A DNA stretch of 64,000 nt from Bacillota bacterium (GCA_023398815.1 JAEWRW010000028.1:139102-203101); one strand, 5' to 3'; positions 32,278-50,484 are shown, counted from the first letter of the stretch. A program made the numbers and translations. Notes: a model not told the origin generated them from the sequence alone.

Positions 32278-33053
32278 TCAGTGCCCTCCTCGGCTATGAT
32301 GACGGTGACGTTGTGGGCCTCTGCCTGCGCCAGCATCTCGGTTGGCAGAGGGGTATCACAGATGAGGGTATCGATTTGATCCATGCAGCCAAAGGTGAAA
32401 GGCAGCACACGGTTGATCTTGCTGTGGTCCATGAGCATGATGCGCGTCTTGGCCTTGCTCAGCACCATGCGTTTGATCTCGCTCTCCTCCACCGAGCCGG
32501 AGGTGAAGCCGTTCTCCACCGAGTAGCCCGACGTCGCCAGGAAAGCCACATCCAGGTTGACGGTGCGCAGCGCTGAGGTCGTCCACTCCCCCGAGACCGA
32601 AAGCGTGTTGTTGCGGATGCGCCCCCCCAGTTGCAGCACGTCAACCCGAGACTTGCCCGCCAGCTCCAGCGCGATATTCGGGCCCGCCGTGATGACCAGA
32701 CAGGTCTCGTCTGGCAGCATCTGCGCGAAGTGCATGAGGGTACTGCCCGAATCGATGAACAACGTGGTATCGGGCGAAAAGAGGCTGAGCGCCGCACGAC
32801 TGATGGACCGCTTGGCCATTACGTCCCGCTGGGCCCGACGGGAAAAGGCATCCTCATAAGGCTTGTTGAGCCGCGAAACCGACAACGCCCCGCCGCGTGT
32901 GCGCCGCACGATGCCGATCTTTTCCAGGTAAATCAAGTCTCTGCGCAATGTCATGGAAGAAATGTCTGGAAAGACTTCCTCCAATTCAGAAAGCAGTACC
33001 TCGCCCTTGGCGGATACCAGTTGCTCTATGGCTCTGCGTCGTTCTTCTGTCAT
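32274..33053 (-). CDS. DeoR/GlpR family transcriptional regulator
   Basis: 259 aa. N-terminal HTH (RRRAIEQLVSAKGEVLLSELEEVFPDISSMTLRRDLIYLEKIGIVRRTRGGA) plus a DeoR C-terminal sugar-phosphate sensor domain. Confidence 0.88.
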   Translation of the reverse strand: MTEERRRAIEQLVSAKGEVLLSELEEVFPDISSMTLRRDLIYLEKIGIVRRTRGGALSVSRLNKPYEDAFSRRAQRDVMAKRSISRAALSLFSPDTTLFIDSGSTLMHFAQMLPDETCLVITAGPNIALELAGKSRVDVLQLGGRIRNNTLSVSGEWTTSALRTVNLDVAFLATSGYSVENGFTSGSVEESEIKRMVLSKAKTRIMLMDHSKINRVLPFTFGCMDQIDTLICDTPLPTEMLAQAEAHNVTVIIAEEGTE

Positions 33054-33129
33054 ATCATCCCCACCCTACTCCTATTATACCGGCTTCATGCCTATGGAAC
33101 AAGCGGAAGGATGCGGTTTCTGGCACAAA

Positions 33130-40049: not shown

Positions 40050-41039
40050 TTATCCTCCTGCCAATTGCAGCAACAAGTGATCGGTTGCAACGGTATACAT
40101 GGCGTTGCCGTCCAAAGCCCGCCGGGCCTGGGCACAGGCCGCCAGCATGGTCTCCAGCCGCGCGCCATCGAGCGTTGGCAAGGCCCTGCCCACCGCGCCG
40201 GTCAGCTTTGGCGCCTGGGCCGAAAGCTGGGCGAGACGCGCGTCCCGCAGGGCGCACTCCCACAGCAGCAGCACATCGCCCACCCGGGCGCGGCGCTCCT
40301 GTAGGAAACGCATGGCCTGGGCCAGGCCGCCGCCGGCGGCCAGCAAATCCAGCGTGCGCAGGGCGTCCTGCCGCAGGGGCCAATAGTCCTCATCCCCCAG
40401 CAGGGCAAGCGCCCGGCCGGGGCTGCCGTCAGCGATGGCGGCGGCGTGCCTCGCCCGCTCGTCGCCATCATGGCCATGCCGCGCCAGCACCGTCAGCACA
40501 TCGGCGGGTGACAGCCGTGCGAGCTTGACCACCGTGCAGCGGGATTGAATCGTGGGCAGCAATGCCGACAGTGAGTCCGTCAGCAGCACAAGCACCACGT
40601 GGGGCGGCGGTTCCTCCAGGGTCTTGAGCAGGGCGTTCTGCGCCTGCACGGTCATATCCTGGGCTTCCTCCACCACCACGACGACGCGGCCACCCTCGTA
40701 GGGTTTCATATCAATCAGCCGTTGCAGCCCCCGGGCGTCCTCAACGCCAAGCGCCTTGCCCGGTTCGGCCGGCCGTATCACGTGCAGGTCAGGGTGGCTC
40801 TGGGCCAGCGCCTTCCGGCACGACGAACAATGGTTGCAGGGTTTGTCAGAAAGGCTCTGGCACAGCAGTGCGCGGGCATAGAGCGCCGCCACCGTGCGCT
40901 TGCCAGAGCCCGATGGCCCCAACACAAGTAGGGCATGGGCAACCGTGCCCCGTGCAAGCGGCGCCAGCAGGCGGGCTTTCAGGGTCGGTTGCCCAATCAA
41001 ATCGTCAAAGGTTATGGGTTGGTCGTTCTGCGCTGCCAA
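40050..41039 (-). CDS. holB: DNA polymerase III delta-prime subunit
   Basis: ORF 40050..41198, which overlaps darA. There is no ATG after the darA stop. I propose the TTG at 41039, giving (M)AAQNDQPITFDDLIGQPTLKARL...AHALLVLGPSGSGKRTVA...LCQSLSDKPCNHCSSCRK (zinc module), 329 aa. Confidence 0.75.
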   Translation of the reverse strand: MAAQNDQPITFDDLIGQPTLKARLLAPLARGTVAHALLVLGPSGSGKRTVAALYARALLCQSLSDKPCNHCSSCRKALAQSHPDLHVIRPAEPGKALGVEDARGLQRLIDMKPYEGGRVVVVVEEAQDMTVQAQNALLKTLEEPPPHVVLVLLTDSLSALLPTIQSRCTVVKLARLSPADVLTVLARHGHDGDERARHAAAIADGSPGRALALLGDEDYWPLRQDALRTLDLLAAGGGLAQAMRFLQERRARVGDVLLLWECALRDARLAQLSAQAPKLTGAVGRALPTLDGARLETMLAACAQARRALDGNAMYTVATDHLLLQLAGG

Positions 41040-41046
41040 CGGATGG

Positions 41047-41376
41047 TTACACCTTCTTGAACTGTTCGACGTCCATGACGAACACGGTGGCGCCGCCGAC
41101 CACGACCTCGACCGGGTAGGGTACATACATGCCGGAGGAGCCCGCCACCGGCGAGGGCGACGTGGCGATCTGCTTGCGGCTCTTGCACACCTTTTCAATG
41201 ACGCCCATGGCGCCCTGCAACTTGTCGTCAGACACGCCGACCAGCAGTGTCGTGTTGCCGGCCCGCAGGAAACCGCCTGTCGTCGCCAGTTTCGTCACGC
41301 CGTAACCGTCGCTCATCAGGGCGCTGACCAGTCTGCCGGAATCCTCGTCCTGTACAATCGCAATGACCAATTTCAT
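41047..41376 (-). CDS. darA: cyclic-di-AMP receptor DarA (PII-like, YaaQ/DUF970)
   Basis: ORF 41047..41484. The start is at 41376, after AAGGAGG: MKLVIAIVQDEDSGRLVSALMSDGYGVTKLATTGGFLRAGNTTLLVGV...YVPYPVEVVVGGATVFVMDVEQF. By eye this closely parallels B. subtilis DarA. Confidence 0.8.
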   Translation of the reverse strand: MKLVIAIVQDEDSGRLVSALMSDGYGVTKLATTGGFLRAGNTTLLVGVSDDKLQGAMGVIEKVCKSRKQIATSPSPVAGSSGMYVPYPVEVVVGGATVFVMDVEQFKKV

Positions 41377-41455
41377 AGGGGTTCCTCCTTTTTGTTGAGA
41401 GGCCATCCTCGTGTTTTGCTTTCGCACCGACGGCACCGCCGTCTGGCTTGTACCT

Positions 41456-41484
41456 ATTATAGCGCAGCGAGTGTGCTTTGGCAA
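41456..41484 (-). promoter_or_regulatory. sigma-A type promoter of darA-holB-ricT (TTGCCA-17-TATAAT)
   Basis: Minus strand reads TTGCCA (41484-41479), a 17-nt spacer and TATAAT (41461-41456), about 80 nt upstream of the darA ATG. Confidence 0.7.
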
Positions 41485-41589
41485 ACCAGAGCGAGCCCAA
41501 ACGGTACTTATATCACAATATTACCATGTATTTCCCTGTTTGCAACGGGGAATTCCGACGGTTTCTGCCGAATGGTGCGAACCACGCCC

Positions 41590-42657
41590 TCAGTAGCGGC
41601 CCACTTCCTTAACCAGGGCGACGATGCGGCGGAAATCAGCAAGCGACACGGTATTGGGGATGGAGTGATCGGAGGAGAAGATGTATCCCCCGTTTTGCTT
41701 CATCAGCGGCACCACGCGGCGGATTTCTTCCTCAATTGCCTCGGGCTTATCCCACAGGACGGCGTTGACCCCGCCGTGGAAGGTCAGCCGGTCGCCATAC
41801 ATTCCCTTGAGCTTGACCGGATCCATGCCAGCCTTAACTTCCACGGGATTGAGGACATCGATGCCGCAATCCAGGATGTCAGGCAGCAGGGGCTCGATGA
41901 ACCCGCAGGAGTGAAGCTCGGCCTTGATGCCGTGGGCATGGGCCCACTCCACCGCCCGCCGGTGGGCCGGCTGCAGAATCGTCCGGTAGGTATTGCGGGA
42001 GAAGAACGGCGTGTGCTTGTAGCCCATGTCGTCGTACCAGAAGATGGAATCGAAGTGATAGCCCCTCTCCCACACCTTGTCAAAGAGGGCGATGGTGGTA
42101 TCGAGGTAGTGGTTGACCATGTCAATGATCCACTCAGGGTCCTCCATCATGCCGATGAGGACCGTCTCCATCCCCGCCATCCAGGAGTGGAGAACGTCGT
42201 AGCCAAACCAGAATGTGCCGGTGATCCAGCGCCCCTCCTGCCGCCAGCGGCGGTAGTTGCGTTCCAGCGCTGCCCAGTCCACCCGGTCCTCGGTGGGCAC
42301 CATGCGGGCTTTGGCCTCCCGCCAGGCGTCGGGGGTGTTGACCTTGTAGCCCAGGAACTCCGGCGTGGAGTCGATGATGCCACGGCGCTCGCGGATCGTC
42401 ACGCCCCAGGGGGTCGTCACAATGCGGTACTCCTCGGTCTCCTCCAGCACCTCTTCGGGGTAGCGGGGGCTGTTGTCGATGCCGATGTTGGCGAAGAGAT
42501 CCACATCGAAGAAGCGGTCCCACTCGGCGTCGGCGGGCATCCCCTCAGCCTGCCAGCGCTGCAATGTGCCCCTCCACGGTGTGTCGGTGATGGGAATGCG
42601 ATCGGCCTCTTTGTGCTCGATCATGCGGAGAACCCGTTCCTGTGTCGTCATGGTCAT
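41590..42657 (-). CDS. uroporphyrinogen decarboxylase (URO-D) family protein, function unknown
   Basis: 355 aa: MTMTTQERVLRMIEHKEADRIPI...FWYDDMGYK...ELHSCGFIEPLLPDILDCGIDVLNPVE...IFSSDHSIP. This is the URO-D/MtaA-like TIM-barrel pattern. No corrinoid protein or heme genes are nearby. Confidence 0.75.
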   Translation of the reverse strand: MTMTTQERVLRMIEHKEADRIPITDTPWRGTLQRWQAEGMPADAEWDRFFDVDLFANIGIDNSPRYPEEVLEETEEYRIVTTPWGVTIRERRGIIDSTPEFLGYKVNTPDAWREAKARMVPTEDRVDWAALERNYRRWRQEGRWITGTFWFGYDVLHSWMAGMETVLIGMMEDPEWIIDMVNHYLDTTIALFDKVWERGYHFDSIFWYDDMGYKHTPFFSRNTYRTILQPAHRRAVEWAHAHGIKAELHSCGFIEPLLPDILDCGIDVLNPVEVKAGMDPVKLKGMYGDRLTFHGGVNAVLWDKPEAIEEEIRRVVPLMKQNGGYIFSSDHSIPNTVSLADFRRIVALVKEVGRY

Positions 42658-42672
42658 CCTCCTGCCCCGCGC

Positions 42673-43800
42673 TCAGCGCTCTTTGAGTTGCTTGCCGTAT
42701 ACCCGACGCCGACGATGCCGCCGGTGTTCAAAGTGCTTCCACTGGGCCTGCACCTGCTCGTTCGTCTCCAACTCCGGCATGGCGATGGCATACCGATACC
42801 CCTGGGCCAGTGCCTCGCGCAGGATGGAGGTCAGCAACAGCGCGTTGACGCCCATGTTCTGGTAGCAGGGGCGCACCGCCACCAGATACAGGTCCAGAAT
42901 GTCATTGTGCCGGATGGCGCGCAGAACCGGAATGAAGCCGAAGGGCAACAGTCGCCCGCCGTTGCGGCGCATGGCCTTGGAGAGGGACGGCAGGCAGATG
43001 CCCACGGCGGCGACGCGGCCTTCCTTATCCAACACCACCTTGATGAAGTGGGGATTGACGAAACCAAAGAACTGATCGATGTATTGCTTCACCTCGTGCT
43101 CGGTCAGCGGCACGTAGCCGTAGAGGTGGCGATAGGCCTCCATGAGGACGTCAAAAATCTCCTTGGCCCAGGGCAGAATCTCCTTGTTGCGGTGGAAATC
43201 GAGGAGACGGAACCCTCCCTTGGCCACCACCATCTGGGCGATGCGCTCGAGGCGCTCGTCTGGCTTCTCCGGCACCTTGATCTCAAGCTCAATCCAGTCG
43301 GCTTCCTTGGCGTAGCCCAAGGCCTCCAGGTGCTGCATGTAGTAGGGATAATTGTAGTAAGTGACAAAGCCGGAAATCTCCTCGAAGCCCTCGATGAGCA
43401 TGCCTTCCTTGTCCATGTCGGTGAAGCCCATGGGGCCGACGATCTCGTTCATCCCCTGCTGGGCAGCCCACTGCTCGGCTTCTGCCAGCAGGGCGGCCGA
43501 TACCTCGGGGTCGTCGATGAAATCCAACCGGGAGAAACGAGCCTGGCGCTTGTTCCAGGCTTTGTTGACGTTGTGATTGACCAGAGCCATGACGCGCCCC
43601 ACCAGCTTACCGTCCTTCCATGCCAGCCACTTGTCGGCCACGCTGTGCTCAAAGGCCGGGTTCTTCTTGGGGTTCAGGCTGTTCTTTTCATCCATGTACA
43701 GGTCGGGGACATACCAGGAGTTGCCAGCATAGAGCTTGTTGGGAAATTGCAGAAAGCGCCGAAGATCTCGCGCGGTGCGAACCGGTGTGATGGTAACCAT
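42673..43800 (-). CDS. conserved 375-aa protein, probable GNAT-fold acyltransferase-like
   Basis: MVTITPVRTARDLRRFLQFPNKLYAGNSWYVPDLYMDEKNSLNPKKNPAFEHS...KLVGRVMALVNHNVN...LYLVAVRPCYQNMGVNALL (the Q/R-x-x-G-x-A/G-like acetyl-CoA motif region). The assignment is from memory of similarly annotated proteins, not from a search. Confidence 0.45.
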   Translation of the reverse strand: MVTITPVRTARDLRRFLQFPNKLYAGNSWYVPDLYMDEKNSLNPKKNPAFEHSVADKWLAWKDGKLVGRVMALVNHNVNKAWNKRQARFSRLDFIDDPEVSAALLAEAEQWAAQQGMNEIVGPMGFTDMDKEGMLIEGFEEISGFVTYYNYPYYMQHLEALGYAKEADWIELEIKVPEKPDERLERIAQMVVAKGGFRLLDFHRNKEILPWAKEIFDVLMEAYRHLYGYVPLTEHEVKQYIDQFFGFVNPHFIKVVLDKEGRVAAVGICLPSLSKAMRRNGGRLLPFGFIPVLRAIRHNDILDLYLVAVRPCYQNMGVNALLLTSILREALAQGYRYAIAMPELETNEQVQAQWKHFEHRRHRRRRVYGKQLKER

Positions 43801-43804
43801 GGAA

Positions 43805-44770
43805 TCACTCCTTTGGCATCAATTCCTGTGTAACGCCCGTGCCAGCCTCCATCGCACGGCGACGGTTCTGGCGTGTCTGCTCCAGCATGTACCACAGCAT
43901 GCCCGCCATGGTGACCAGGCCGCCCATCAGCAGGAAGATGGAAGGGCGGTCGCCCAGCAGGAAGAAGGCCCACGTGCCCGTGATGAGCGGCTGCACCAGC
44001 ATCATGATGGACGCGGTGGACGTGGGGATGTGCCCCAGAGACCAATTGACGATGGTGTGCCCAAAGAACGTGGAGCACACCACAATGACGCCCACATCCA
44101 GGAAGAGCCTGGGTGCGTAGGGCGCGAAGGACCAGCCGGACACCAAGATGAATACGGCCAGCAACACCGCGCTGATGCCGTATACCCCGGTGGTGTAGGT
44201 ATTGACCGTATAACGGGAGCGCATCTCCCGCCCGACGAGCATATAGCCGGAGAAGAGCAGCGCCCCCAGCAGAGCCAGCAGGTCACCGGTGATGTTGCCC
44301 TCCCGCCGCAGGAGCGAATTGGCCCCAACGAGCAGGATACCAAGGAAGCACACCGCCACCCCCATGAGACTGCGGCGCGAGTACCGCACGCCGAAGAGGA
44401 AACGGTCGCCAATGAGGGTGAACACCGGGTGGGCGCAGACCAGCACCATGGAGCCAAAGGTGGAGGTAAACTTGAGCGACTGCACCCACACATAGAAATG
44501 GAGTGCCAGGAACACCCCGGACGTGGCCAGCAGCAGCATGTCCTTGCGGGAGGACACGAGCTGGCGCAGCTCCTGTCTGCCCCGGGCGGAGAATACCACG
44601 AAGGGCAGCGTGCAGAGCGCAGCGGTGCTCAGCCGCCAGAAGTTGATGACAGCCGCCGGCATGCCGCCGGCCATGATGATCTTGTTCATCGGGGCAGAGA
44701 CGCCCATCATCAGGATGCTGAACCCCAGCGCCAGATACACCGGCAGCTTGTTCTGTTCGTCGTGTTTCAT
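43805..44770 (-). CDS. DMT superfamily (EamA-like) transporter
   Basis: ORF 43805..44971. The start is at 44770 (MKHDEQNKLPVYLALGFSILMMGVSAPMNK). It has about 10 hydrophobic helices in two EamA halves. Its ATG overlaps the TGA of the upstream gene (ATGA). Confidence 0.8.
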   Translation of the reverse strand: MKHDEQNKLPVYLALGFSILMMGVSAPMNKIIMAGGMPAAVINFWRLSTAALCTLPFVVFSARGRQELRQLVSSRKDMLLLATSGVFLALHFYVWVQSLKFTSTFGSMVLVCAHPVFTLIGDRFLFGVRYSRRSLMGVAVCFLGILLVGANSLLRREGNITGDLLALLGALLFSGYMLVGREMRSRYTVNTYTTGVYGISAVLLAVFILVSGWSFAPYAPRLFLDVGVIVVCSTFFGHTIVNWSLGHIPTSTASIMMLVQPLITGTWAFFLLGDRPSIFLLMGGLVTMAGMLWYMLEQTRQNRRRAMEAGTGVTQELMPKE

Positions 44771-45777
44771 GGGTGGCTCCTGTCCTGGGTTTGATCGTGC
44801 CAGCTGGAGCGGACGCGCGCGGCCAGCTCGGCGGCGATGTCCTCCAGCGGCAGGGCGCGTACGTCGTTGGGCGCCGCGGCATGGGGCTCGTGCAATACGG
44901 CGTTGCGATCCATCCACACCGACCAACTGCCGTTGCGGGAGAGAGCTTCCAGCCCGTTGCAGCCACCGCACCCCGCGCAGGGCAGCAGCACACCGGCTGC
45001 TGTGCCGCCCGGCAGCGCTGCCAGCGAAAGGAAAAGCTGATCGGCCAGGCAGCAGCGGGCCGGCAGACCCAACTTCAGAACCAAGCCGCCGGAGCCCTCC
45101 AATACCTGGGGGCGGCGGTTGCCGGTGTAGAGGTACACCATGCCAGCTTCCAGTAGCGTGGTCTCATCAATGGCACGCACTGTGCGGCCGCACATCTGCG
45201 ACAGGGTGCGGGCAAAATCAGCGCTGTACGCCCGCGCGTGGTGCTGCAGAATGAGCACCGGCGGTCCTTCCAACGGCAACTGGCGCAGCAGATAGGTCAC
45301 CGCCACCGGCCCGCCTTTGGCCGCCGCAATGGCGACGACGCGAAGTGTTGTATCTTGGGCCGCAACGGGCTGGGGCATCGCCATGGCGGCGATGCGCACG
45401 CGGGAAGCGAGCTCGGTGCCGAATTGGTCAATCTCACTGTCGCTGCCATAGAGCGGCAGATACAGAAAGTCAACCGCACCAGCATCCAGCAACGAAAGCG
45501 CCATGTCATTGGTGGGGCTGATGGCCACAACGGGCAACCGGGGAAAGCGGCTTTGCAGTGTCACCAGGGGCACAGGGCGGCGGTACCGCCCGGCGTCCAG
45601 CACCACGGCATCGGCCATGCGCGCCGCAAGCGCGGTGAGCATCCCCTCCGGCGGGACACACCGGCAATGCAGGGCGTCGCCCCAGCGGTCCAGTTCGGCC
45701 CCCACGATGCGGCGCACGTCCTCATCGCCGCTCACCACCAGCACCTCGATGCTCCAGTTGCGTCCCGGCCCCTCCAT
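44767..45777 (-). CDS. CheB-like protein (receiver-like + methylesterase-like domains), catalytic residues not conserved
   Basis: ORF 44767..45780; the ATG at 45777 overlaps the AraC TGA by 1 nt. The C-terminal domain aligns by eye with CheB: VVAIAAAKGGPVAV versus IGASTGG, LILQHH versus VQHMP, LPCAGCGGC versus LTGMGNDGA. The N-terminal domain is receiver-like (VVLDAG, VVAISP, DFLYLP). Confidence 0.6.
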   Translation of the reverse strand: MEGPGRNWSIEVLVVSGDEDVRRIVGAELDRWGDALHCRCVPPEGMLTALAARMADAVVLDAGRYRRPVPLVTLQSRFPRLPVVAISPTNDMALSLLDAGAVDFLYLPLYGSDSEIDQFGTELASRVRIAAMAMPQPVAAQDTTLRVVAIAAAKGGPVAVTYLLRQLPLEGPPVLILQHHARAYSADFARTLSQMCGRTVRAIDETTLLEAGMVYLYTGNRRPQVLEGSGGLVLKLGLPARCCLADQLFLSLAALPGGTAAGVLLPCAGCGGCNGLEALSRNGSWSVWMDRNAVLHEPHAAAPNDVRALPLEDIAAELAARVRSSWHDQTQDRSHP

Positions 45778-46673
45778 CACTGTCTCCCCACCTGGCGGCG
45801 ATACTTCATGGGGGAGATGCCCACAGACTTGATGAAGAGCTCGTTCATACGGCGCTGGTCACTGAAGCCGGCGGCCATCGCCACGTCCTTGATGCTGCGG
45901 TCGGTGTTCACCAGCATCTCCTGCGCCTTGGCCAGGCGCACCTGCTGCAGGTAGTGCATGGGCGACTGCCCCCATGCCTCCTTGAAGGCGCGAACAAAAT
46001 AGCTGGGGCTGAGGTAGACATAGCCAGCGATCTGGCGAAGGGTCAGGTCTTCGGTGTAGTTCTCCTCAATGTATGCCCGGGCGCTGTGCATGTATTCACT
46101 GATGCGCTGGCCGTGGGGCTCCACCGAACTCTCCCACTGGGCGCGGAGCGCCCGGGAGATGAGCACAAAGAGCTCCAGCACCATGAGGCGAATCATGAAC
46201 TCGTATCCTTCGTTGGCCTGGCGCTGTTCGGTGAGGATTCGGTTGATCTGGCGGGTGACATCGCTCCACAGGCCAGCATTGATGGGCACATACTCGGTGT
46301 CGGAGGGGTTGACCAGATAATTGAGAAAATCCTTGAGGGCCGGGGCGTAAATCTCATTACCAGCGTAGTCGGCAAATTGAAAGCGCATGACGACAATGTC
46401 GCAGCTCCCCTCCCCCAGCACGGTGAAACGGTGCAGCATGCGGGGGCGTATGATCATTAGGTCGCCGGGGCCCATGGGGGCGGTGCGGTCACCGGCAAAG
46501 GTGAACACCGCCTGGCCCTGGCGGATGAACGCCATCTCAAAGCTGTCATGGGTGCTGAAGTCGGTGCTGATGCGGTTGGCGTCGTGCACCCGCTCCACCA
46601 ACTCCACAATGACCGGCACAAGGCCTGCGGTCTGCATTGTCTGTTCCCAAATGATGGGATTCGGTTGGCTCAT
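45777..46673 (-). CDS. AraC family transcriptional regulator (cupin sensor + HTH)
   Basis: ORF 45777..46832. The start is at 46673, 1 nt after the glycerate kinase stop. It has a cupin-like N-terminus (FIRQGQAVFTFAGD...MIIRPRMLHRF) and a C-terminal AraC HTH (LTLRQIAGYVYLSPSYFVRAFKEAWGQSPMHYLQQVRLAKAQEML...GFSDQRRMNELFIKSVGISPMKYR). Confidence 0.85.
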   Translation of the reverse strand: MSQPNPIIWEQTMQTAGLVPVIVELVERVHDANRISTDFSTHDSFEMAFIRQGQAVFTFAGDRTAPMGPGDLMIIRPRMLHRFTVLGEGSCDIVVMRFQFADYAGNEIYAPALKDFLNYLVNPSDTEYVPINAGLWSDVTRQINRILTEQRQANEGYEFMIRLMVLELFVLISRALRAQWESSVEPHGQRISEYMHSARAYIEENYTEDLTLRQIAGYVYLSPSYFVRAFKEAWGQSPMHYLQQVRLAKAQEMLVNTDRSIKDVAMAAGFSDQRRMNELFIKSVGISPMKYRRQVGRQ

Positions 46674-46674
46674 G

Positions 46675-47814
46675 TCAGCGTTCCATCCCCCTGCCAGTTT
46701 GAAGGGCCCGGGCCAGCCGGGCTGTGGCACCCTCGATGAGCGCCGCCGCGTTTGCCATGGATTGCTCCGGCGACAGGGGGCCGTCCGCAATGGCCATGAC
46801 GCAGTGGATTCCCTGTTGATGCACGGCCTCATACCCAGGCCCTAACCGCCCGGCGATGGCCGCCACCGGCAGGCCGCCGGCCCGGCGGGCCACACCCACC
46901 GGTACCTTGCCCAGCGCCGTCTGCTCGTCCAGGCTCCCCTCGCCGGTGAGGAGCAGCGACGCGCCGGAGAGCGCCTCGTCAAAGTGTGCGGCCTCCAGCA
47001 CCACGTCGATGCCGGGGAGCATTTGGGCTCCGCAGTAGCGCATCAGTGCCCAACCCAAGCCACCGGCAGCCCCTGCTCCCGGCTGGTTGGCACAGTCCGC
47101 CCCACCCCGCGCCGCCACGGCAGCCAGGTGGGCAAGGCAGCGCTCCATGTGCGCCACGTCGTCGGGCGTCGCGCCCTTCTGCGGGCCAAAGACCGCAGAC
47201 GCACCCTGGGGGCCGCAGAGCGGGTTGCCCACGTCACTTGCCAACACCATTTCGCAGGCGGCCAGGCGGGCATCGAGGCCGCTCACGTCAATGGCAGCGA
47301 GCCGACACAGATCACCGGGGGCAACAAGCTCGCCCCCCTCGGACAAGAAGCGCACGCCCAGCGCCCGCAGCAGACCCATGCCGCCGTCGTTGGTGGCACT
47401 GCCGCCGATGCCCACGATGAAACGGCGACACCCGGCGTCCAGCGCGGCCCGCACCAGTTCACCGGTGCCATAGGTATCGGCCCGCCGCACATCGCGGCGC
47501 TCGGTCGGCACCAGCGCAAGCCCAGAGGCCCTTGCCATCTCGATGACGGCGGTGTTGTCGGGCAGCAGGAGCCAAGCCGCTTCCACCATGTCGCCCAGCG
47601 GGCCGCGCACGGCACAGCGCTGCCAGCTGCCTCCACAGGCGGCCTGCATCGCTTCCAGTGTTCCCTCGCCGCCATCGGCCACCGGCAGTAACACCAATTC
47701 ATCCCCCGGGCAAACGCGAGCCCACCCCCGCGCCATGGCGCGAGCCACCTCATCGGCGGGGCAAGAGCCTTTGAACTTGTCGGGTACAATCACAACCTTC
47801 ATGCGCAGATCCAT
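46675..47814 (-). CDS. glxK: glycerate kinase
   Basis: 379 aa: MKVVIVPDKFKGSC...LPVADGGEGTLEAM...IVGIGGSATNDGGMGLLRALG...LLLTGEGSLDEQTALGKVPVGVA. Confidence 0.88.
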   Translation of the reverse strand: MDLRMKVVIVPDKFKGSCPADEVARAMARGWARVCPGDELVLLPVADGGEGTLEAMQAACGGSWQRCAVRGPLGDMVEAAWLLLPDNTAVIEMARASGLALVPTERRDVRRADTYGTGELVRAALDAGCRRFIVGIGGSATNDGGMGLLRALGVRFLSEGGELVAPGDLCRLAAIDVSGLDARLAACEMVLASDVGNPLCGPQGASAVFGPQKGATPDDVAHMERCLAHLAAVAARGGADCANQPGAGAAGGLGWALMRYCGAQMLPGIDVVLEAAHFDEALSGASLLLTGEGSLDEQTALGKVPVGVARRAGGLPVAAIAGRLGPGYEAVHQQGIHCVMAIADGPLSPEQSMANAAALIEGATARLARALQTGRGMER

Positions 47815-47892
47815 ACCATCCCTTATGATTCACACACGACAACAGGGCGCGGCGTGAACCGCTCCCCGCTGTTACATAGGTGGTTAACGATC

Positions 47893-47921
47893 AGTATACC
47901 ATTTGCACGATGCCGAGGAAA
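47893..47921 (-). promoter_or_regulatory. candidate extended -10 promoter of the glxK operon
   Basis: Minus strand reads TTTCCT, a 17-nt spacer ending TGG, and TATACT (47898-47893), about 80 nt upstream of the glxK ATG. Confidence 0.45.
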
Positions 47922-47959
47922 GCGGCATCCGTCACATTTTGACACAAATCACCGGTTCC

Positions 47960-48979
47960 TTATGCCCTGCGCGGCCACTGGGCTAGCATTTTCTGAATTT
48001 GAGGAAGCGGTTGCACGCCCTGCCCGCCCAACAAGCAGGCCGCCGCGCCCGCACCCAGGTCCATGGCTGCGGCCACGTCCCACCCGTGATGCAGGCCGTA
48101 GAGCATGCCCGCGCAGAAGGCATCGCCCGCACCCACGGTGGTGCGGATGTACCCCACCGGCAGCTGCAGGCTGGGCCGCACGGCCACCGTGCCATCGGCC
48201 TCAACACACCAGGCACCTTCCGGCGTGTGGATGGCAACCAGCCGCCGCACGCCCAGGCCAAGAAGCGCCCGGCAGATGGCCACAAGGTTGTGGCGCAGCA
48301 GGGTGCCGTTACCGTCCCGCGCGGGGATATCCACAATGCGGGACGCCTCAATCTCGTTGACGATGAGGTAGTCACAATGGGGAAGGCTGGGCCGGACGAT
48401 CGCGGCAAAGCGGTCACCCTCCTCCGATACCACATCCATGGAGGTGACAAAGCCGGCCTCGGTGGCTATGGCCAGTGCCCGAGCCATGCCGGTGCCATAT
48501 TCTGGGTCGGGGGCATCCAGTGCGTCCAGCAGCAGCGCGTAGGCGATGTGAAAGAGCCCGCAGCCCTCATAGGCCGTGAAATCCAGATGCTCCACCCCAA
48601 GGTGGGCATTGGCCCCCCGGGCGTGGAAGAACGTGCGTTCTTTGGTGCCGCTGTCGGTCATCACATCGGTAAAGGCCGTCACATCGTCGCCGAGGCGCGC
48701 TACACCACTCACATCCATACCAACGGCCGCCATCTCGCCCAGCACCCAGTCGCCGTTGGCGTCGTCGCCCACCAGGCCCACGCCCACCACCCGTTGGGTT
48801 GGGTCCATGCGCCGCAGCGTCAGGCCCATGTTGGGCACCGAGCCACCAACCGACCGGCTGACCGAGGAGATGCTGGCGAGCATCCCCGGCCGCGGAAAGC
48901 GATCGATGTGTTTGATAGTGTCCACCACGATGTTGCCGGCCAGCACAATGCCGGCCCGATTGGTTTCTCCCTCTCCCAT
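47960..48979 (-). CDS. PfkB-family carbohydrate kinase (fructokinase/ribokinase-like)
   Basis: ORF 47960..49189. The start is at 48979, after GGAGGA: MGEGETNRAGIVLAGNIVVDTIK... with C-terminal TTVGAGDAFCAGMLYG (PfkB signature 2). Confidence 0.85.
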   Translation of the reverse strand: MGEGETNRAGIVLAGNIVVDTIKHIDRFPRPGMLASISSVSRSVGGSVPNMGLTLRRMDPTQRVVGVGLVGDDANGDWVLGEMAAVGMDVSGVARLGDDVTAFTDVMTDSGTKERTFFHARGANAHLGVEHLDFTAYEGCGLFHIAYALLLDALDAPDPEYGTGMARALAIATEAGFVTSMDVVSEEGDRFAAIVRPSLPHCDYLIVNEIEASRIVDIPARDGNGTLLRHNLVAICRALLGLGVRRLVAIHTPEGAWCVEADGTVAVRPSLQLPVGYIRTTVGAGDAFCAGMLYGLHHGWDVAAAMDLGAGAAACLLGGQGVQPLPQIQKMLAQWPRRA

Positions 48980-49098: not shown

Positions 49099-50484
49099 TC
49101 AACCCAGGCGGTTGACCACGAAATGGTTGAGCACGCACTCTCCGGTGAGCTCCGCGCTCAAGCTGTGGTTCTCCTCCACCGGGTAACACAGGGCCGAGAG
49201 CAACACCCGCCCCTCCTGCAGGGCGATCTCCACGGCGTTATGGTCGACGACGACGCGCAGCCCCACCGGTACCCCCGGCACCAGCGGTGCGGTGAGTGGC
49301 TTCGAGAAGACCGGGTGTTCGCAGGCATTGCGGCCTGGCAGCCGTTCAACCGTGGCCGTCATGGCGGCGGTGTCCACTGTCAGGCGCAGAGCATCGCACA
49401 GGGTCAGCACCCACTGGCCCTGCCCCGTCAACTCGCCCTGCAGCACGGCCACATGGCCCATATCGGCGCAGTGGAGCTGCCGCGTGGCAGCGGCGGCCTC
49501 CCCCGCCCGCACCAGGAGCGTGGTGCGGCGCAGGCCATCGAGCTCCCTGCAGGTCTGCTGGGTCAGCATCGGGCCGTCGGGGCCCTCCACCAGCGCCAGC
49601 TCCCGTGGCAGGCTCATCATGCCGCGCCAGCCCTCCGCTGGGGTGGCGTTGGCATAGACCCAGGAGTTGAGCCAGCCAATCCACACCGTGCGGTCCTCGG
49701 CCCCCTGAAAGGTGATGGGCGCGTAGAAATCGAGCCCCCAGTCTGCCAGCCGGGGCTCGCCCTGTGGTGTGTAGCGGTAACCGTCGAAATCGCCTACGAA
49801 ATACTTGACGCCCTGCACGCCAAGCGGCCCGCCGGTGGTGACGCTCAGGGTGAAGATCCACTTCTGCCCATCCTTCCAGGGCAGCGGGAAGAGGTCAGGG
49901 CACTCCCACACGACATCCCCCAGTGCCGGCACCGGGCCGAACTCGCTGGCAAACTGCCACTTCCGCAGGTTTGGCGAGCGGTAGAGCCGCGCACGATCAC
50001 CACTGGCCACCACCATGACCCAGCTTTGGGTGGGTGCGTGCCAGAAGACGCGTGGGTCGCGGAAGTCCCGAGAAGCAGGCTCGGCCACCACGGGATTGCC
50101 TTGGTACTTCTGCCAGGTCTGGCCACCGTCCACGCTGTAGGCCAGGCTTTGCCGCTCACCGTCGTCGCGGTGGCTGGTGTAGGCCGCCACCAGCGGCGTC
50201 TCCCCCACCGCGCCAAAGCCAGTGGTGTTGGCCTCATCGACCACTGCTGAGCCGGAGAAGCACATGCCCAATTCATCTGGTGCAAGCGCAATGGGCAGGT
50301 GCTCCCACTCCAGCAAATCGCGGCTAACGGCGTGACCCCAATGCATGGGACCCCAAACGACGTCGTCGGGGTAATGCTGATAGAACAGATGGTACTGCCC
50401 GTCGTGAAACAGCGTACCGTTGGGGTCGTTGATCCAACCCTTGAGAGGGGTGAAGTGCAGCAGCGGGCGTTCAATGGCAGACAT
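49099..50484 (-). CDS. glycoside hydrolase family 32 (sucrose-6-phosphate hydrolase / beta-fructofuranosidase-like), no signal peptide
   Basis: ORF 49099..50691. The start is at 50484, after GGGAGG: MSAIERPLLHFTPLKGWINDPNG (nucleophile motif), FRDPRVFW (RDP), WECPDLF (EC). Confidence 0.88.
   Translation of the reverse strand: MSAIERPLLHFTPLKGWINDPNGTLFHDGQYHLFYQHYPDDVVWGPMHWGHAVSRDLLEWEHLPIALAPDELGMCFSGSAVVDEANTTGFGAVGETPLVAAYTSHRDDGERQSLAYSVDGGQTWQKYQGNPVVAEPASRDFRDPRVFWHAPTQSWVMVVASGDRARLYRSPNLRKWQFASEFGPVPALGDVVWECPDLFPLPWKDGQKWIFTLSVTTGGPLGVQGVKYFVGDFDGYRYTPQGEPRLADWGLDFYAPITFQGAEDRTVWIGWLNSWVYANATPAEGWRGMMSLPRELALVEGPDGPMLTQQTCRELDGLRRTTLLVRAGEAAAATRQLHCADMGHVAVLQGELTGQGQWVLTLCDALRLTVDTAAMTATVERLPGRNACEHPVFSKPLTAPLVPGVPVGLRVVVDHNAVEIALQEGRVLLSALCYPVEENHSLSAELTGECVLNHFVVNRLG

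Follow-up and report, generated by a model that had tools for sequence, protein, structure and literature searches.

Six genes on the minus strand of a 64,000-nucleotide (nt) stretch of Bacillota bacterium DNA (GCA_023398815.1, JAEWRW010000028.1:139102-203101; hereafter the window) lie head to tail as open reading frames (ORFs) between positions 41590 and 47814. In order they are glxK, araC, a cheB-like gene, an EamA permease gene, a gene for a 375-amino-acid (aa) GNAT protein (GNAT375) and a URO-D-like gene. Sequence comparison with relatives leads us to conclude, with moderate confidence, that the six genes are a composite operon, in which two evolutionarily independent modules, glxK-araC-cheB-like (module A) and EamA-GNAT375-URO-D (module B), have been physically fused and are co-transcribed in this lineage. 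The fusion is seen within one small group of gut-type Clostridia. The six genes would thus be co-regulated by history, not by a common pathway. The first-pass annotation of this stretch had suggested one catabolic route for a small molecule; a single new six-gene pathway now appears unlikely, since modules A and B behave independently in relatives from the genus. Such a lineage-specific composite operon shows two transcription units becoming one where a spacer is absent, and cautions that tight coupling is no proof of a common pathway. The six genes were found tightly packed at the coordinates first given for them, and their family assignments hold in Pfam and NCBIfam searches. The array and its promoter are as follows.

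47893-47921, minus strand: candidate sigma-70 promoter of the array, TTTCCT, 17-nt spacer and extended -10 TG-n-TATACT (TGGTATACT)
46675-47814, minus strand: glxK, class I glycerate kinase, 379 aa, with an alternative start at 47802 (MKVVIV)
45777-46673, minus strand: AraC-family regulator, 298 aa, with N-terminal cupin/AraC_binding and C-terminal HTH_18 domains
44767-45777, minus strand: CheB paralog, predicted to be catalytically dead, with a degenerate receiver and a degenerate methylesterase domain
43805-44770, minus strand: EamA/DMT-superfamily permease, 321 aa (PF00892, two repeats)
42673-43800, minus strand: GNAT375, predicted tandem (double) GNAT-fold acyltransferase of an uncharacterised, widespread orthogroup (PF00583 and AlphaFold model)
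41590-42657, minus strand: URO-D-fold enzyme, 355 aa, of an uncharacterised orthogroup (PF01208), with a likelier start at 42651

Gene order across the genus

The genomic surroundings of GNAT375 homologs were compared in 20 relatives and in metagenome contigs. In the labels used here, G000 is the source genome of the window, G001-G006 and G017 are genomes of relatives, C-numbers are contigs and L-numbers are loci; L121, L122, L127, L128, L131, L132 and L133 are metagenome contigs with close homologs of the array proteins. Counts of loci come from kin genomes and are not independent observations. Five types of arrangement are seen among relatives from the genus.

Type I: six genes fused, with GH32-pfkB upstream (window, G003, L131, L132)
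Type II: cheB-like gene, a small GNAT gene (PF13302) on the opposite strand, then EamA-GNAT375-URO-D (L121, L127, L128)
Type III: glxK-araC-cheB and GNAT375-URO-D on opposite strands, EamA lacking (L122)
Type IV: (SDR-)glxK-araC-cheB-like-GNAT375, without EamA and URO-D (G002, G004, G006)
Type V: GNAT375 in reverse orientation, separated from the cheB-like gene by CheW and MCP genes (G005, L133; G001 retains an MCP fragment)

Module A is intact and in the same order in every locus of the genus that covers it, and glxK adjoins araC in all 11 relatives' loci covering that position. The complete six-gene array is limited to three species-level lineages, namely the window, G003 and a third lineage represented by two metagenome contigs (L131 and L132). 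The proteins of G003 are 88-98% identical to those of the window; the identity of the type I loci L131 and L132 to the window is 82% for GNAT375, 91% for araC and 46% for the cheB-like gene. Operon conservation, a check proposed in the first-pass annotation, was therefore borne out in part: the array recurs in G003, L131 and L132, while elsewhere in the genus module B is variable, being split off with its own promoter, inverted, partial or absent. GNAT375 lies within a few kb of module A, adjoining darA-holB-ricT, in every genus member examined. The URO-D gene, where present, follows GNAT375 at 13-29 nt, even in the inverted pair. Because the two genes keep this spacing through inversion and turnover of their flanks, their products probably act on related substrates.

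When the cheB-like/EamA junctions are aligned, type II has about 750 nt before EamA that type I lacks. This segment contains the small opposite-strand GNAT gene and a TATAAT box conserved in L121 and L127, both missing in the window. In a maximum-likelihood tree of GNAT375, type IV falls inside type II (L121 is sister to type IV, support 97/99), and this nesting implies that EamA and URO-D were lost in type IV. Type I is a separate, well-supported clade that forms a polytomy with types III and V.

These arrangements suggest the following history. Module A, an AraC-regulated glycerate kinase with a CheB paralog, would be old within the genus, and module B would be an accessory acylation and transport unit confined to a sub-clade. 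The fusion of B to A would correspond to the segment of about 750 nt, with its small GNAT gene and TATAAT promoter, that is absent here; the change may have come about by deletion in the lineage of the window or by insertion in sister lineages. Given that the TATAAT segment is missing and the EamA start overlaps the cheB-like stop, module B would be expressed from the glxK promoter in the lineage of the window.

The ratio of nonsynonymous to synonymous substitution rates (dN/dS) against G003 is 0.02-0.14 for the six array genes, and 0.02-0.11 for the five besides the cheB-like gene. A foreign origin of module B was considered and rejected: GC content at third codon positions is uniform across the array (0.79-0.86), and the lower overall GC content stems from amino-acid composition. 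The array genes thus appear to bear no sign of recent foreign origin.

Junctions, promoter and transcription

The five junctions read from the sequence are those first described. The TGA of glxK is followed by a single c and the ATG of araC (1-nt gap); araC and the cheB-like gene share a TGATG overlap; the cheB-like stop and the EamA start share an ATGA overlap, and this stop and start overlap in all fused-type loci; and gaps of 4 nt and 15 nt separate EamA from GNAT375 and GNAT375 from URO-D, respectively. A purine-rich Shine-Dalgarno sequence precedes every start of the six genes. The cheB-like gene starts at ATG 45777, with GGGGAG 6 nt upstream, rather than at the alternative GTG 45780. For URO-D, the second ATG (42651), 6 nt behind AGGAGG, is a likelier start than the first.

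The proposed promoter at 47893-47921 is below the threshold of our consensus scan, its -35 element being too weak, though it is conserved in both G003 and L131. It is identical in G003. In L131, for which synonymous divergence (dS) from the window is saturated, the pfkB-glxK spacer is only 71 nt long and diverged, and the promoter is its sole conserved block (CCGCTTTyCTC ... TGrTATACT), which supports a real promoter. The absence of internal terminators was likewise upheld: the consensus scan gave 8 terminator-like sites against a shuffle expectation of 6.4 +/- 2.7, no excess, and an Rfam search of 41000-48200 gave no match at E <= 1, and hence no riboswitch or other leader RNA. The same scan found a single internal promoter-like site, a weak one. 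Considering the conserved promoter, the Shine-Dalgarno sequence at every start, the stop/start overlaps and the lack of a terminator, the six genes are probably read as one message.

Just 5' of the -35 element, at 47931-47948 (minus strand), TTTGTGTCAAAATGTGAC contains two TGTG(T/A)C-type half-sites about 10 nt apart, and L131 carries TTTTGCGGTAATTTTGCTGA at the matching position. These half-sites may represent a direct-repeat operator to which the AraC protein binds. In the mechanism we propose, this regulator would bind a small effector through its cupin sensor and control the promoter just upstream of glxK. Another candidate signal, an inverted repeat of 7 nt around the -35 region, was discarded, as it is not conserved in G003 or L131.

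Proteins of module B

The EamA protein matches PF00892 (97.1 bits) with two repeats in two stretches, as do the EamA (YdeD) and YddG exporters of the DMT superfamily. It is weakly similar to YddG and to the 2A78 carboxylate/amino acid/amine transporters, with equivalog scores far below cut-off. EamA orthologs were found only in the sub-clade that has module B, and a JGI metagenome scan for them returned a single short partial match.

GNAT375 matches PF00583 (28.8 bits, cut-off 20.7) at residues 254-348, in the C-terminal half only, where its loop YQNMGVN aligns with the family consensus YQGKGVN, the Q-x-x-G-x-(G/A/N) coenzyme A-binding loop of the C-terminal fold. A search against solved structures with phmmer gave no sequence-level match. 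The structural comparison suggested by the first-pass annotation was informative for both GNAT375 and the URO-D-like protein, which were assigned to the tandem-GNAT and the MtaA/HemE folds, respectively. For GNAT375 (AlphaFold pLDDT 81) the nearest structures in Foldseek are the tandem-GNATs 2wpw, 5kf1 and 7q3a, MshD and FemX (TM 0.4-0.67, 9-14% identity). Characterised tandem-GNATs (the glucosamine N-acetyltransferase 5kf1 of C. acetobutylicum, 2wpw of the clavulanate pathway, MshD, FemX and Eis) consist of two fused GNAT folds, as GNAT375 is modelled to do, whereas its length (~375 aa) and invariant motifs are family-specific. From the model, GNAT375 appears to share this fold class and not the membership of a characterised subfamily.

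More than 6,600 homologs of GNAT375 were found, typically about 50% identical across phyla, and orthologs outside the genus sit in unrelated contexts. None of 17 distant loci carries glxK, an araC ortholog, cheB or EamA. A DegV/FakB gene, for a fatty-acid-binding protein, lies directly upstream of GNAT375, on the same strand and at -4 to 36 nt, in 6 of the 17 distant loci, representing three genera (L032, L033, L034, L035, L036 and L040, the last with two tandem GNAT copies). By analogy, this coupling hints at a lipid or acyl substrate for the GNAT375 family. A literature search returned nothing on DegV with tandem GNATs. This orthogroup, about 50% identical across phyla and DegV/FakB-coupled in some genera, deserves attention.

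The URO-D-like protein matches PF01208 at 62.6 bits, above cut-off, over model positions 153-345, which is the C-terminal half only. It has no HemE NCBIfam match, no haem gene is nearby in the window, and its score against TIGR01463, a model for MtaA/CmuA corrinoid methyltransferases, is 41.7 (cut-off 235.4). Its AlphaFold model (pLDDT 92) has as best solved match the methylcobamide:CoM methyltransferase MtaA (4ay7, TM 0.68), followed by HemE structures, at 13-17% identity. The protein shares with uroporphyrinogen decarboxylase HemE the TIM-barrel fold (TM 0.6-0.69) and PF01208; it differs in being only 13-15% identical, in matching half of the model and in its lack of tetrapyrrole context, and the paralog on contig C36 is a full-length and much better match to PF01208.

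The orthogroup alignment contains the invariant motifs LHSCG and SSDHS(I/V)P. Within the former, His249-Ser-Cys251 aligns with the zinc-binding LHICG of MtaA, so that the two proteins have a His-x-Cys motif in common. The differences from MtaA are that the URO-D-like protein is only 16% identical, that its N-terminal half is unmatched by Pfam, that Asp-His stands at the position of the second Cys ligand, and that no corrinoid protein is encoded near its gene, the orthogroup standing alone in 80 loci. We speculate that the URO-D-like protein transfers alkyl or methyl groups in a metal-dependent reaction, perhaps in partnership with the lone stand-alone corrinoid protein of the genome. Many Trp, Asp and Glu residues are also invariant in the alignment, and, still more speculatively, these would suit a sugar-like substrate.

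A scan of one genome per species for the URO-D-like protein gave 569 relatives, of which the best 80 were taken for locus analysis. These 80 are 55-65% identical and come from about ten phyla, with taxa that include Bacillota, Planctomycetota, Verrucomicrobiota, Lentisphaerota, Chloroflexota, Armatimonadota, Elusimicrobia and Treponema. By tblastn, no homolog of GNAT375, glxK, the cheB-like gene or EamA lies within 10 kb in any of the 80 loci. Neighbours were clustered for 62 of the 80 loci: the largest cluster is of other URO-D paralogs (9 loci), and apart from these and a few AraC regulators no recurrent partner was found. We found no corrinoid protein in the window locus, nor among the recurrent neighbour clusters of the 62 loci, whose neighbours were not scanned for B12 domains. 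A literature search gave nothing on bacterial URO-D-like enzymes. This URO-D-fold orthogroup is thus about 60% identical over some ten phyla of anaerobic glycan degraders, without conserved neighbours.

Two candidates for a GNAT-URO-D link outside the genus were set aside. Conservation of the pair beyond the genus is ruled out by the absence of GNAT from all 80 URO-D loci. In G017 a URO-D gene does lie downstream of GNAT375; it is a different paralog (23% identity), which is at chance level given 8 paralogs per genome.

The source genome G000 has eight PF01208 matches, on contigs C36, C29, C50, C33, C25, C26 (two) and C58 (loci L013-L020). Only the C36 match (196 bits) spans the full length; all the rest resemble the window copy in matching the C-terminal half alone. 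At C10:30963-33055 of the same genome, the gene for a 446-aa PocR-AraC regulator precedes that for an MtaC-type corrinoid protein of 210 aa (B12-binding_2 and B12-binding; at about 32426-33055). The latter is the only ORF of the genome with the DxHxxG...SxL...GG motif, and it adjoins none of the eight URO-D paralogs, which it could serve in trans.

Proteins of module A

GlxK matches PF02595 at 449 bits over positions 1-371 of 372 and scores 422.9 against TIGR00045 (cut-off 168.45), making it by sequence a clear class I glycerate kinase. Its scores against the 2-kinase and 3-kinase equivalogs are below cut-off (NF007401, 348.5 against 625; NF007668, 318.8 against 686), and the assignment, made at the level of the family, predicts that it forms 2- or 3-phosphoglycerate from glycerate. 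Like the array, E. coli GlxK and GarK combine a PF02595/TIGR00045 kinase with a neighbouring transcription factor gene. In contrast to the E. coli systems, the window has no genes for glyoxylate, glucarate or tartronate-semialdehyde, and relatives have only an SDR gene upstream; the regulator of the array is of the AraC type, and the cut-offs of the 2-kinase and 3-kinase equivalogs are both unreached. The glxK gene has a dN/dS of 0.11 against G003 and is 72-73% identical to that of L131. The gene calls split glxK of L121 (2312-3454) in two (197 and 177 aa), which is a frameshift or an assembly error; the SDR-glxK-araC-cheB-like unit there is intact in all other respects.

The AraC protein has HTH_18 (81.5 bits, cut-off 33.6), AraC_binding (30.9, cut-off 21.1) and Cupin_2 (29.6, cut-off 27.2) matches, and its predicted C-terminal double helix-turn-helix and N-terminal ligand-binding domain place it in the AraC/XylS family. 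Its gene is the most constrained of the array (dN/dS 0.02).

The CheB-like protein has the two-domain layout of Salmonella CheB (1a2o), a receiver and a CheB_methylest domain (PF01339, 74.9 bits, cut-off 24, residues 149-319). It scores below the NCBIfam CheB cut-offs (NF009206, 94.1 against 342; NF001965, 84 against 293). Unlike Salmonella CheB, it is encoded outside any che operon, behind araC, and the degeneracy claimed for it is confirmed by alignment with 1a2o (residues 76-292, E = 3e-20): Ser164 is replaced by Ala and Asp286 by Gly, while His190 is kept. In the receiver, the equivalent of Asp56 is the only signature residue kept; the acidic pair, Ser/Thr87 and Lys109 read S-G, P and L, and Pfam Response_reg was not detected by profile search. 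Since the nucleophilic Ser, the triad Asp and most receiver residues are lost, the protein is predicted to be unable to demethylate chemoreceptors or to be phospho-regulated in the usual way.

Signature residues were tabulated in 13 sequences from the genus, the window and 12 relatives' loci carrying a cheB-like gene. The Ser-His-Asp triad is retained in types III and V; types I, II and IV lack the Ser and have usually lost more. All 13 sequences lack the acidic pair and Lys109 of the receiver. The CheB paralogs of one genus thus appear to trace a stepwise path from enzyme to pseudoenzyme. The clade is narrow, comprising five clusters before the score drops from 272 to 150 bits at ordinary CheBs. 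The cheB-like gene has diverged much faster than the genes around it: its identity to L131 is 45-46%, whereas theirs is 72-91%. Its dN/dS against G003 is 0.14, and its frame is open in 12 of 12 relatives' loci. The last two observations exclude that it is a pseudogene. As the gene is kept by selection despite lost catalysis, the protein most likely acts by binding chemoreceptors or the regulator, which is a guess. The case is of interest as one of catalysis lost stepwise in one genus, with the paralog still under selection behind an AraC regulator. None of the three uncharacterised proteins of the array alone settles a long-standing question.

The intact-triad cheB-like genes of type V sit beside CheW-MCP genes, and the triad has gone in lineages that lack such neighbours (window 44767-45777 compared with L022, L023, L122 and L133). 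Elsewhere, the genome encodes a canonical CheB in which every signature residue is present (G000 C62:39965-41167), and it has at least 12 MCP and 2 CheW genes.

Alternative explanations

Several observations weigh against the composite-operon reading or the functions suggested for its module B. The fused and split types are on separate branches of the polytomy, which fits either order of events, deletion here or insertion in the split type. The fused array has persisted, with overlapping codons, in three lineages with saturated dS, and co-expression itself could therefore be selected. The Cys that is the third metal ligand of MtaA is not conserved in the URO-D-like protein; an invariant Asp330-His331 stands there, matched by position only. 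Finally, the link to DegV was observed in other genera and might not extend to the lineage of the window.

The alternative that survives best, and one we still consider unlikely, is a chance juxtaposition of the modules without functional co-transcription, in which module B would have a promoter inside the 3' end of the cheB-like gene, itself a decaying remnant of a dead CheB. The tight junctions fit this explanation, as 13 of 25 same-strand junctions in related contigs with called genes are <= 15 nt; since about half of them are that short, the run of five is operon-like, yet not remarkable by itself. The variability of the space between the cheB-like gene and darA fits as well, as does the faster evolution of the cheB-like gene. 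Against chance stand the overlap of the cheB-like stop with the EamA start in every fused-type locus and the absence from the window of the TATAAT region found ahead of EamA in L121 and L127. Moreover, the consensus scan gave no promoter-like site in the 3' end of the cheB-like gene, and the selection and intact frames reported above are at odds with decay.

A single dedicated route seems distinctly less credible than the composite operon and is, in our judgement, quite unlikely. EamA would transport a substrate, GNAT375 acylate it, the URO-D-like enzyme decarboxylate or demethylate it and GlxK phosphorylate the final glycerate, with the AraC and CheB-like proteins as regulators. Overlapping junctions behind one conserved promoter, retention of the array in three lineages under purifying selection and the constant proximity of GNAT375 to module A within the genus would all be expected of such a route. 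However, module B is separated, inverted or missing in most relatives from the genus while module A is unchanged, glxK, araC orthologs, cheB and EamA are absent from the 80 URO-D ortholog loci and the 17 distant GNAT375 loci, the GNAT orthologs also have unrelated contexts, and no gene and no chemical logic ties glycerate to the other enzymes.

We give similarly little credence to a bolder proposal, that EamA-GNAT375-URO-D is an undescribed three-part system for small-molecule or lipid modification under the AraC/glxK promoter, with the dead CheB binding chemoreceptors. Such a system might, for example, start with acyl transfer by the FakB-associated tandem GNAT, continue with a metal- or corrinoid-dependent transfer of an alkyl group and rely on EamA for transport. 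If true, it would couple metabolite sensing, modification and chemotactic adaptation in one regulon.

Least probable is a chemotaxis-linked sensory unit in place of a metabolic one, in which the ancestral cluster would have comprised glxK-araC-CheB and CheW-MCP, the dead CheB would tune receptor adaptation upon AraC induction and module B would be a passenger: CheW and MCP genes do lie beside the cheB-like gene in G005 and L133 (an MCP fragment in G001), the triad is intact in G001, G005 and L133 and the genome is chemotactic by its MCP, CheW and canonical CheB genes, but the receiver lacks the acidic (DD) pair and Lys109 in all members, even those with an intact triad, the window locus has no CheW or MCP gene, and a literature search found nothing on inactive (dead) CheB paralogs.

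Flanking regions

The genes on either side of the array, all on the minus strand, are the following.

49099-50484, minus strand: GH32 beta-fructosidase, upstream of the array on the same strand
47960-48979, minus strand: PfkB sugar kinase, upstream, with a 145-nt spacer to glxK
41047-41484, minus strand: downstream boundary, the promoter and darA, start of the conserved darA-holB-ricT unit

GH32-pfkB is found upstream of glxK only in fused-type relatives (G003 and L131); in non-fused relatives this position is taken by an SDR or DUF4846 gene. Downstream, a 213-nt spacer (41377-41589) follows URO-D and contains the near-consensus promoter of darA (TTGCCA, 17 nt, TATAAT, 41456-41484). No stable hairpin or terminator was detected in this spacer (z = 0.8), and because no terminator follows URO-D, read-through from the array into darA-holB-ricT is possible.

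The interval from the cheB-like gene to darA is a variable spot whose gene content differs among relatives. In several of them an acyltransferase gene of the NAT_N/GNAT_C type (PF18082/PF18164) lies between GNAT375 and darA (L022:9827-11002, L122:7812-8735 and L133:7771-8925). The spot has repeatedly gathered acyltransferase genes, namely those for the small GNAT, the tandem GNAT and NAT_N/GNAT_C.

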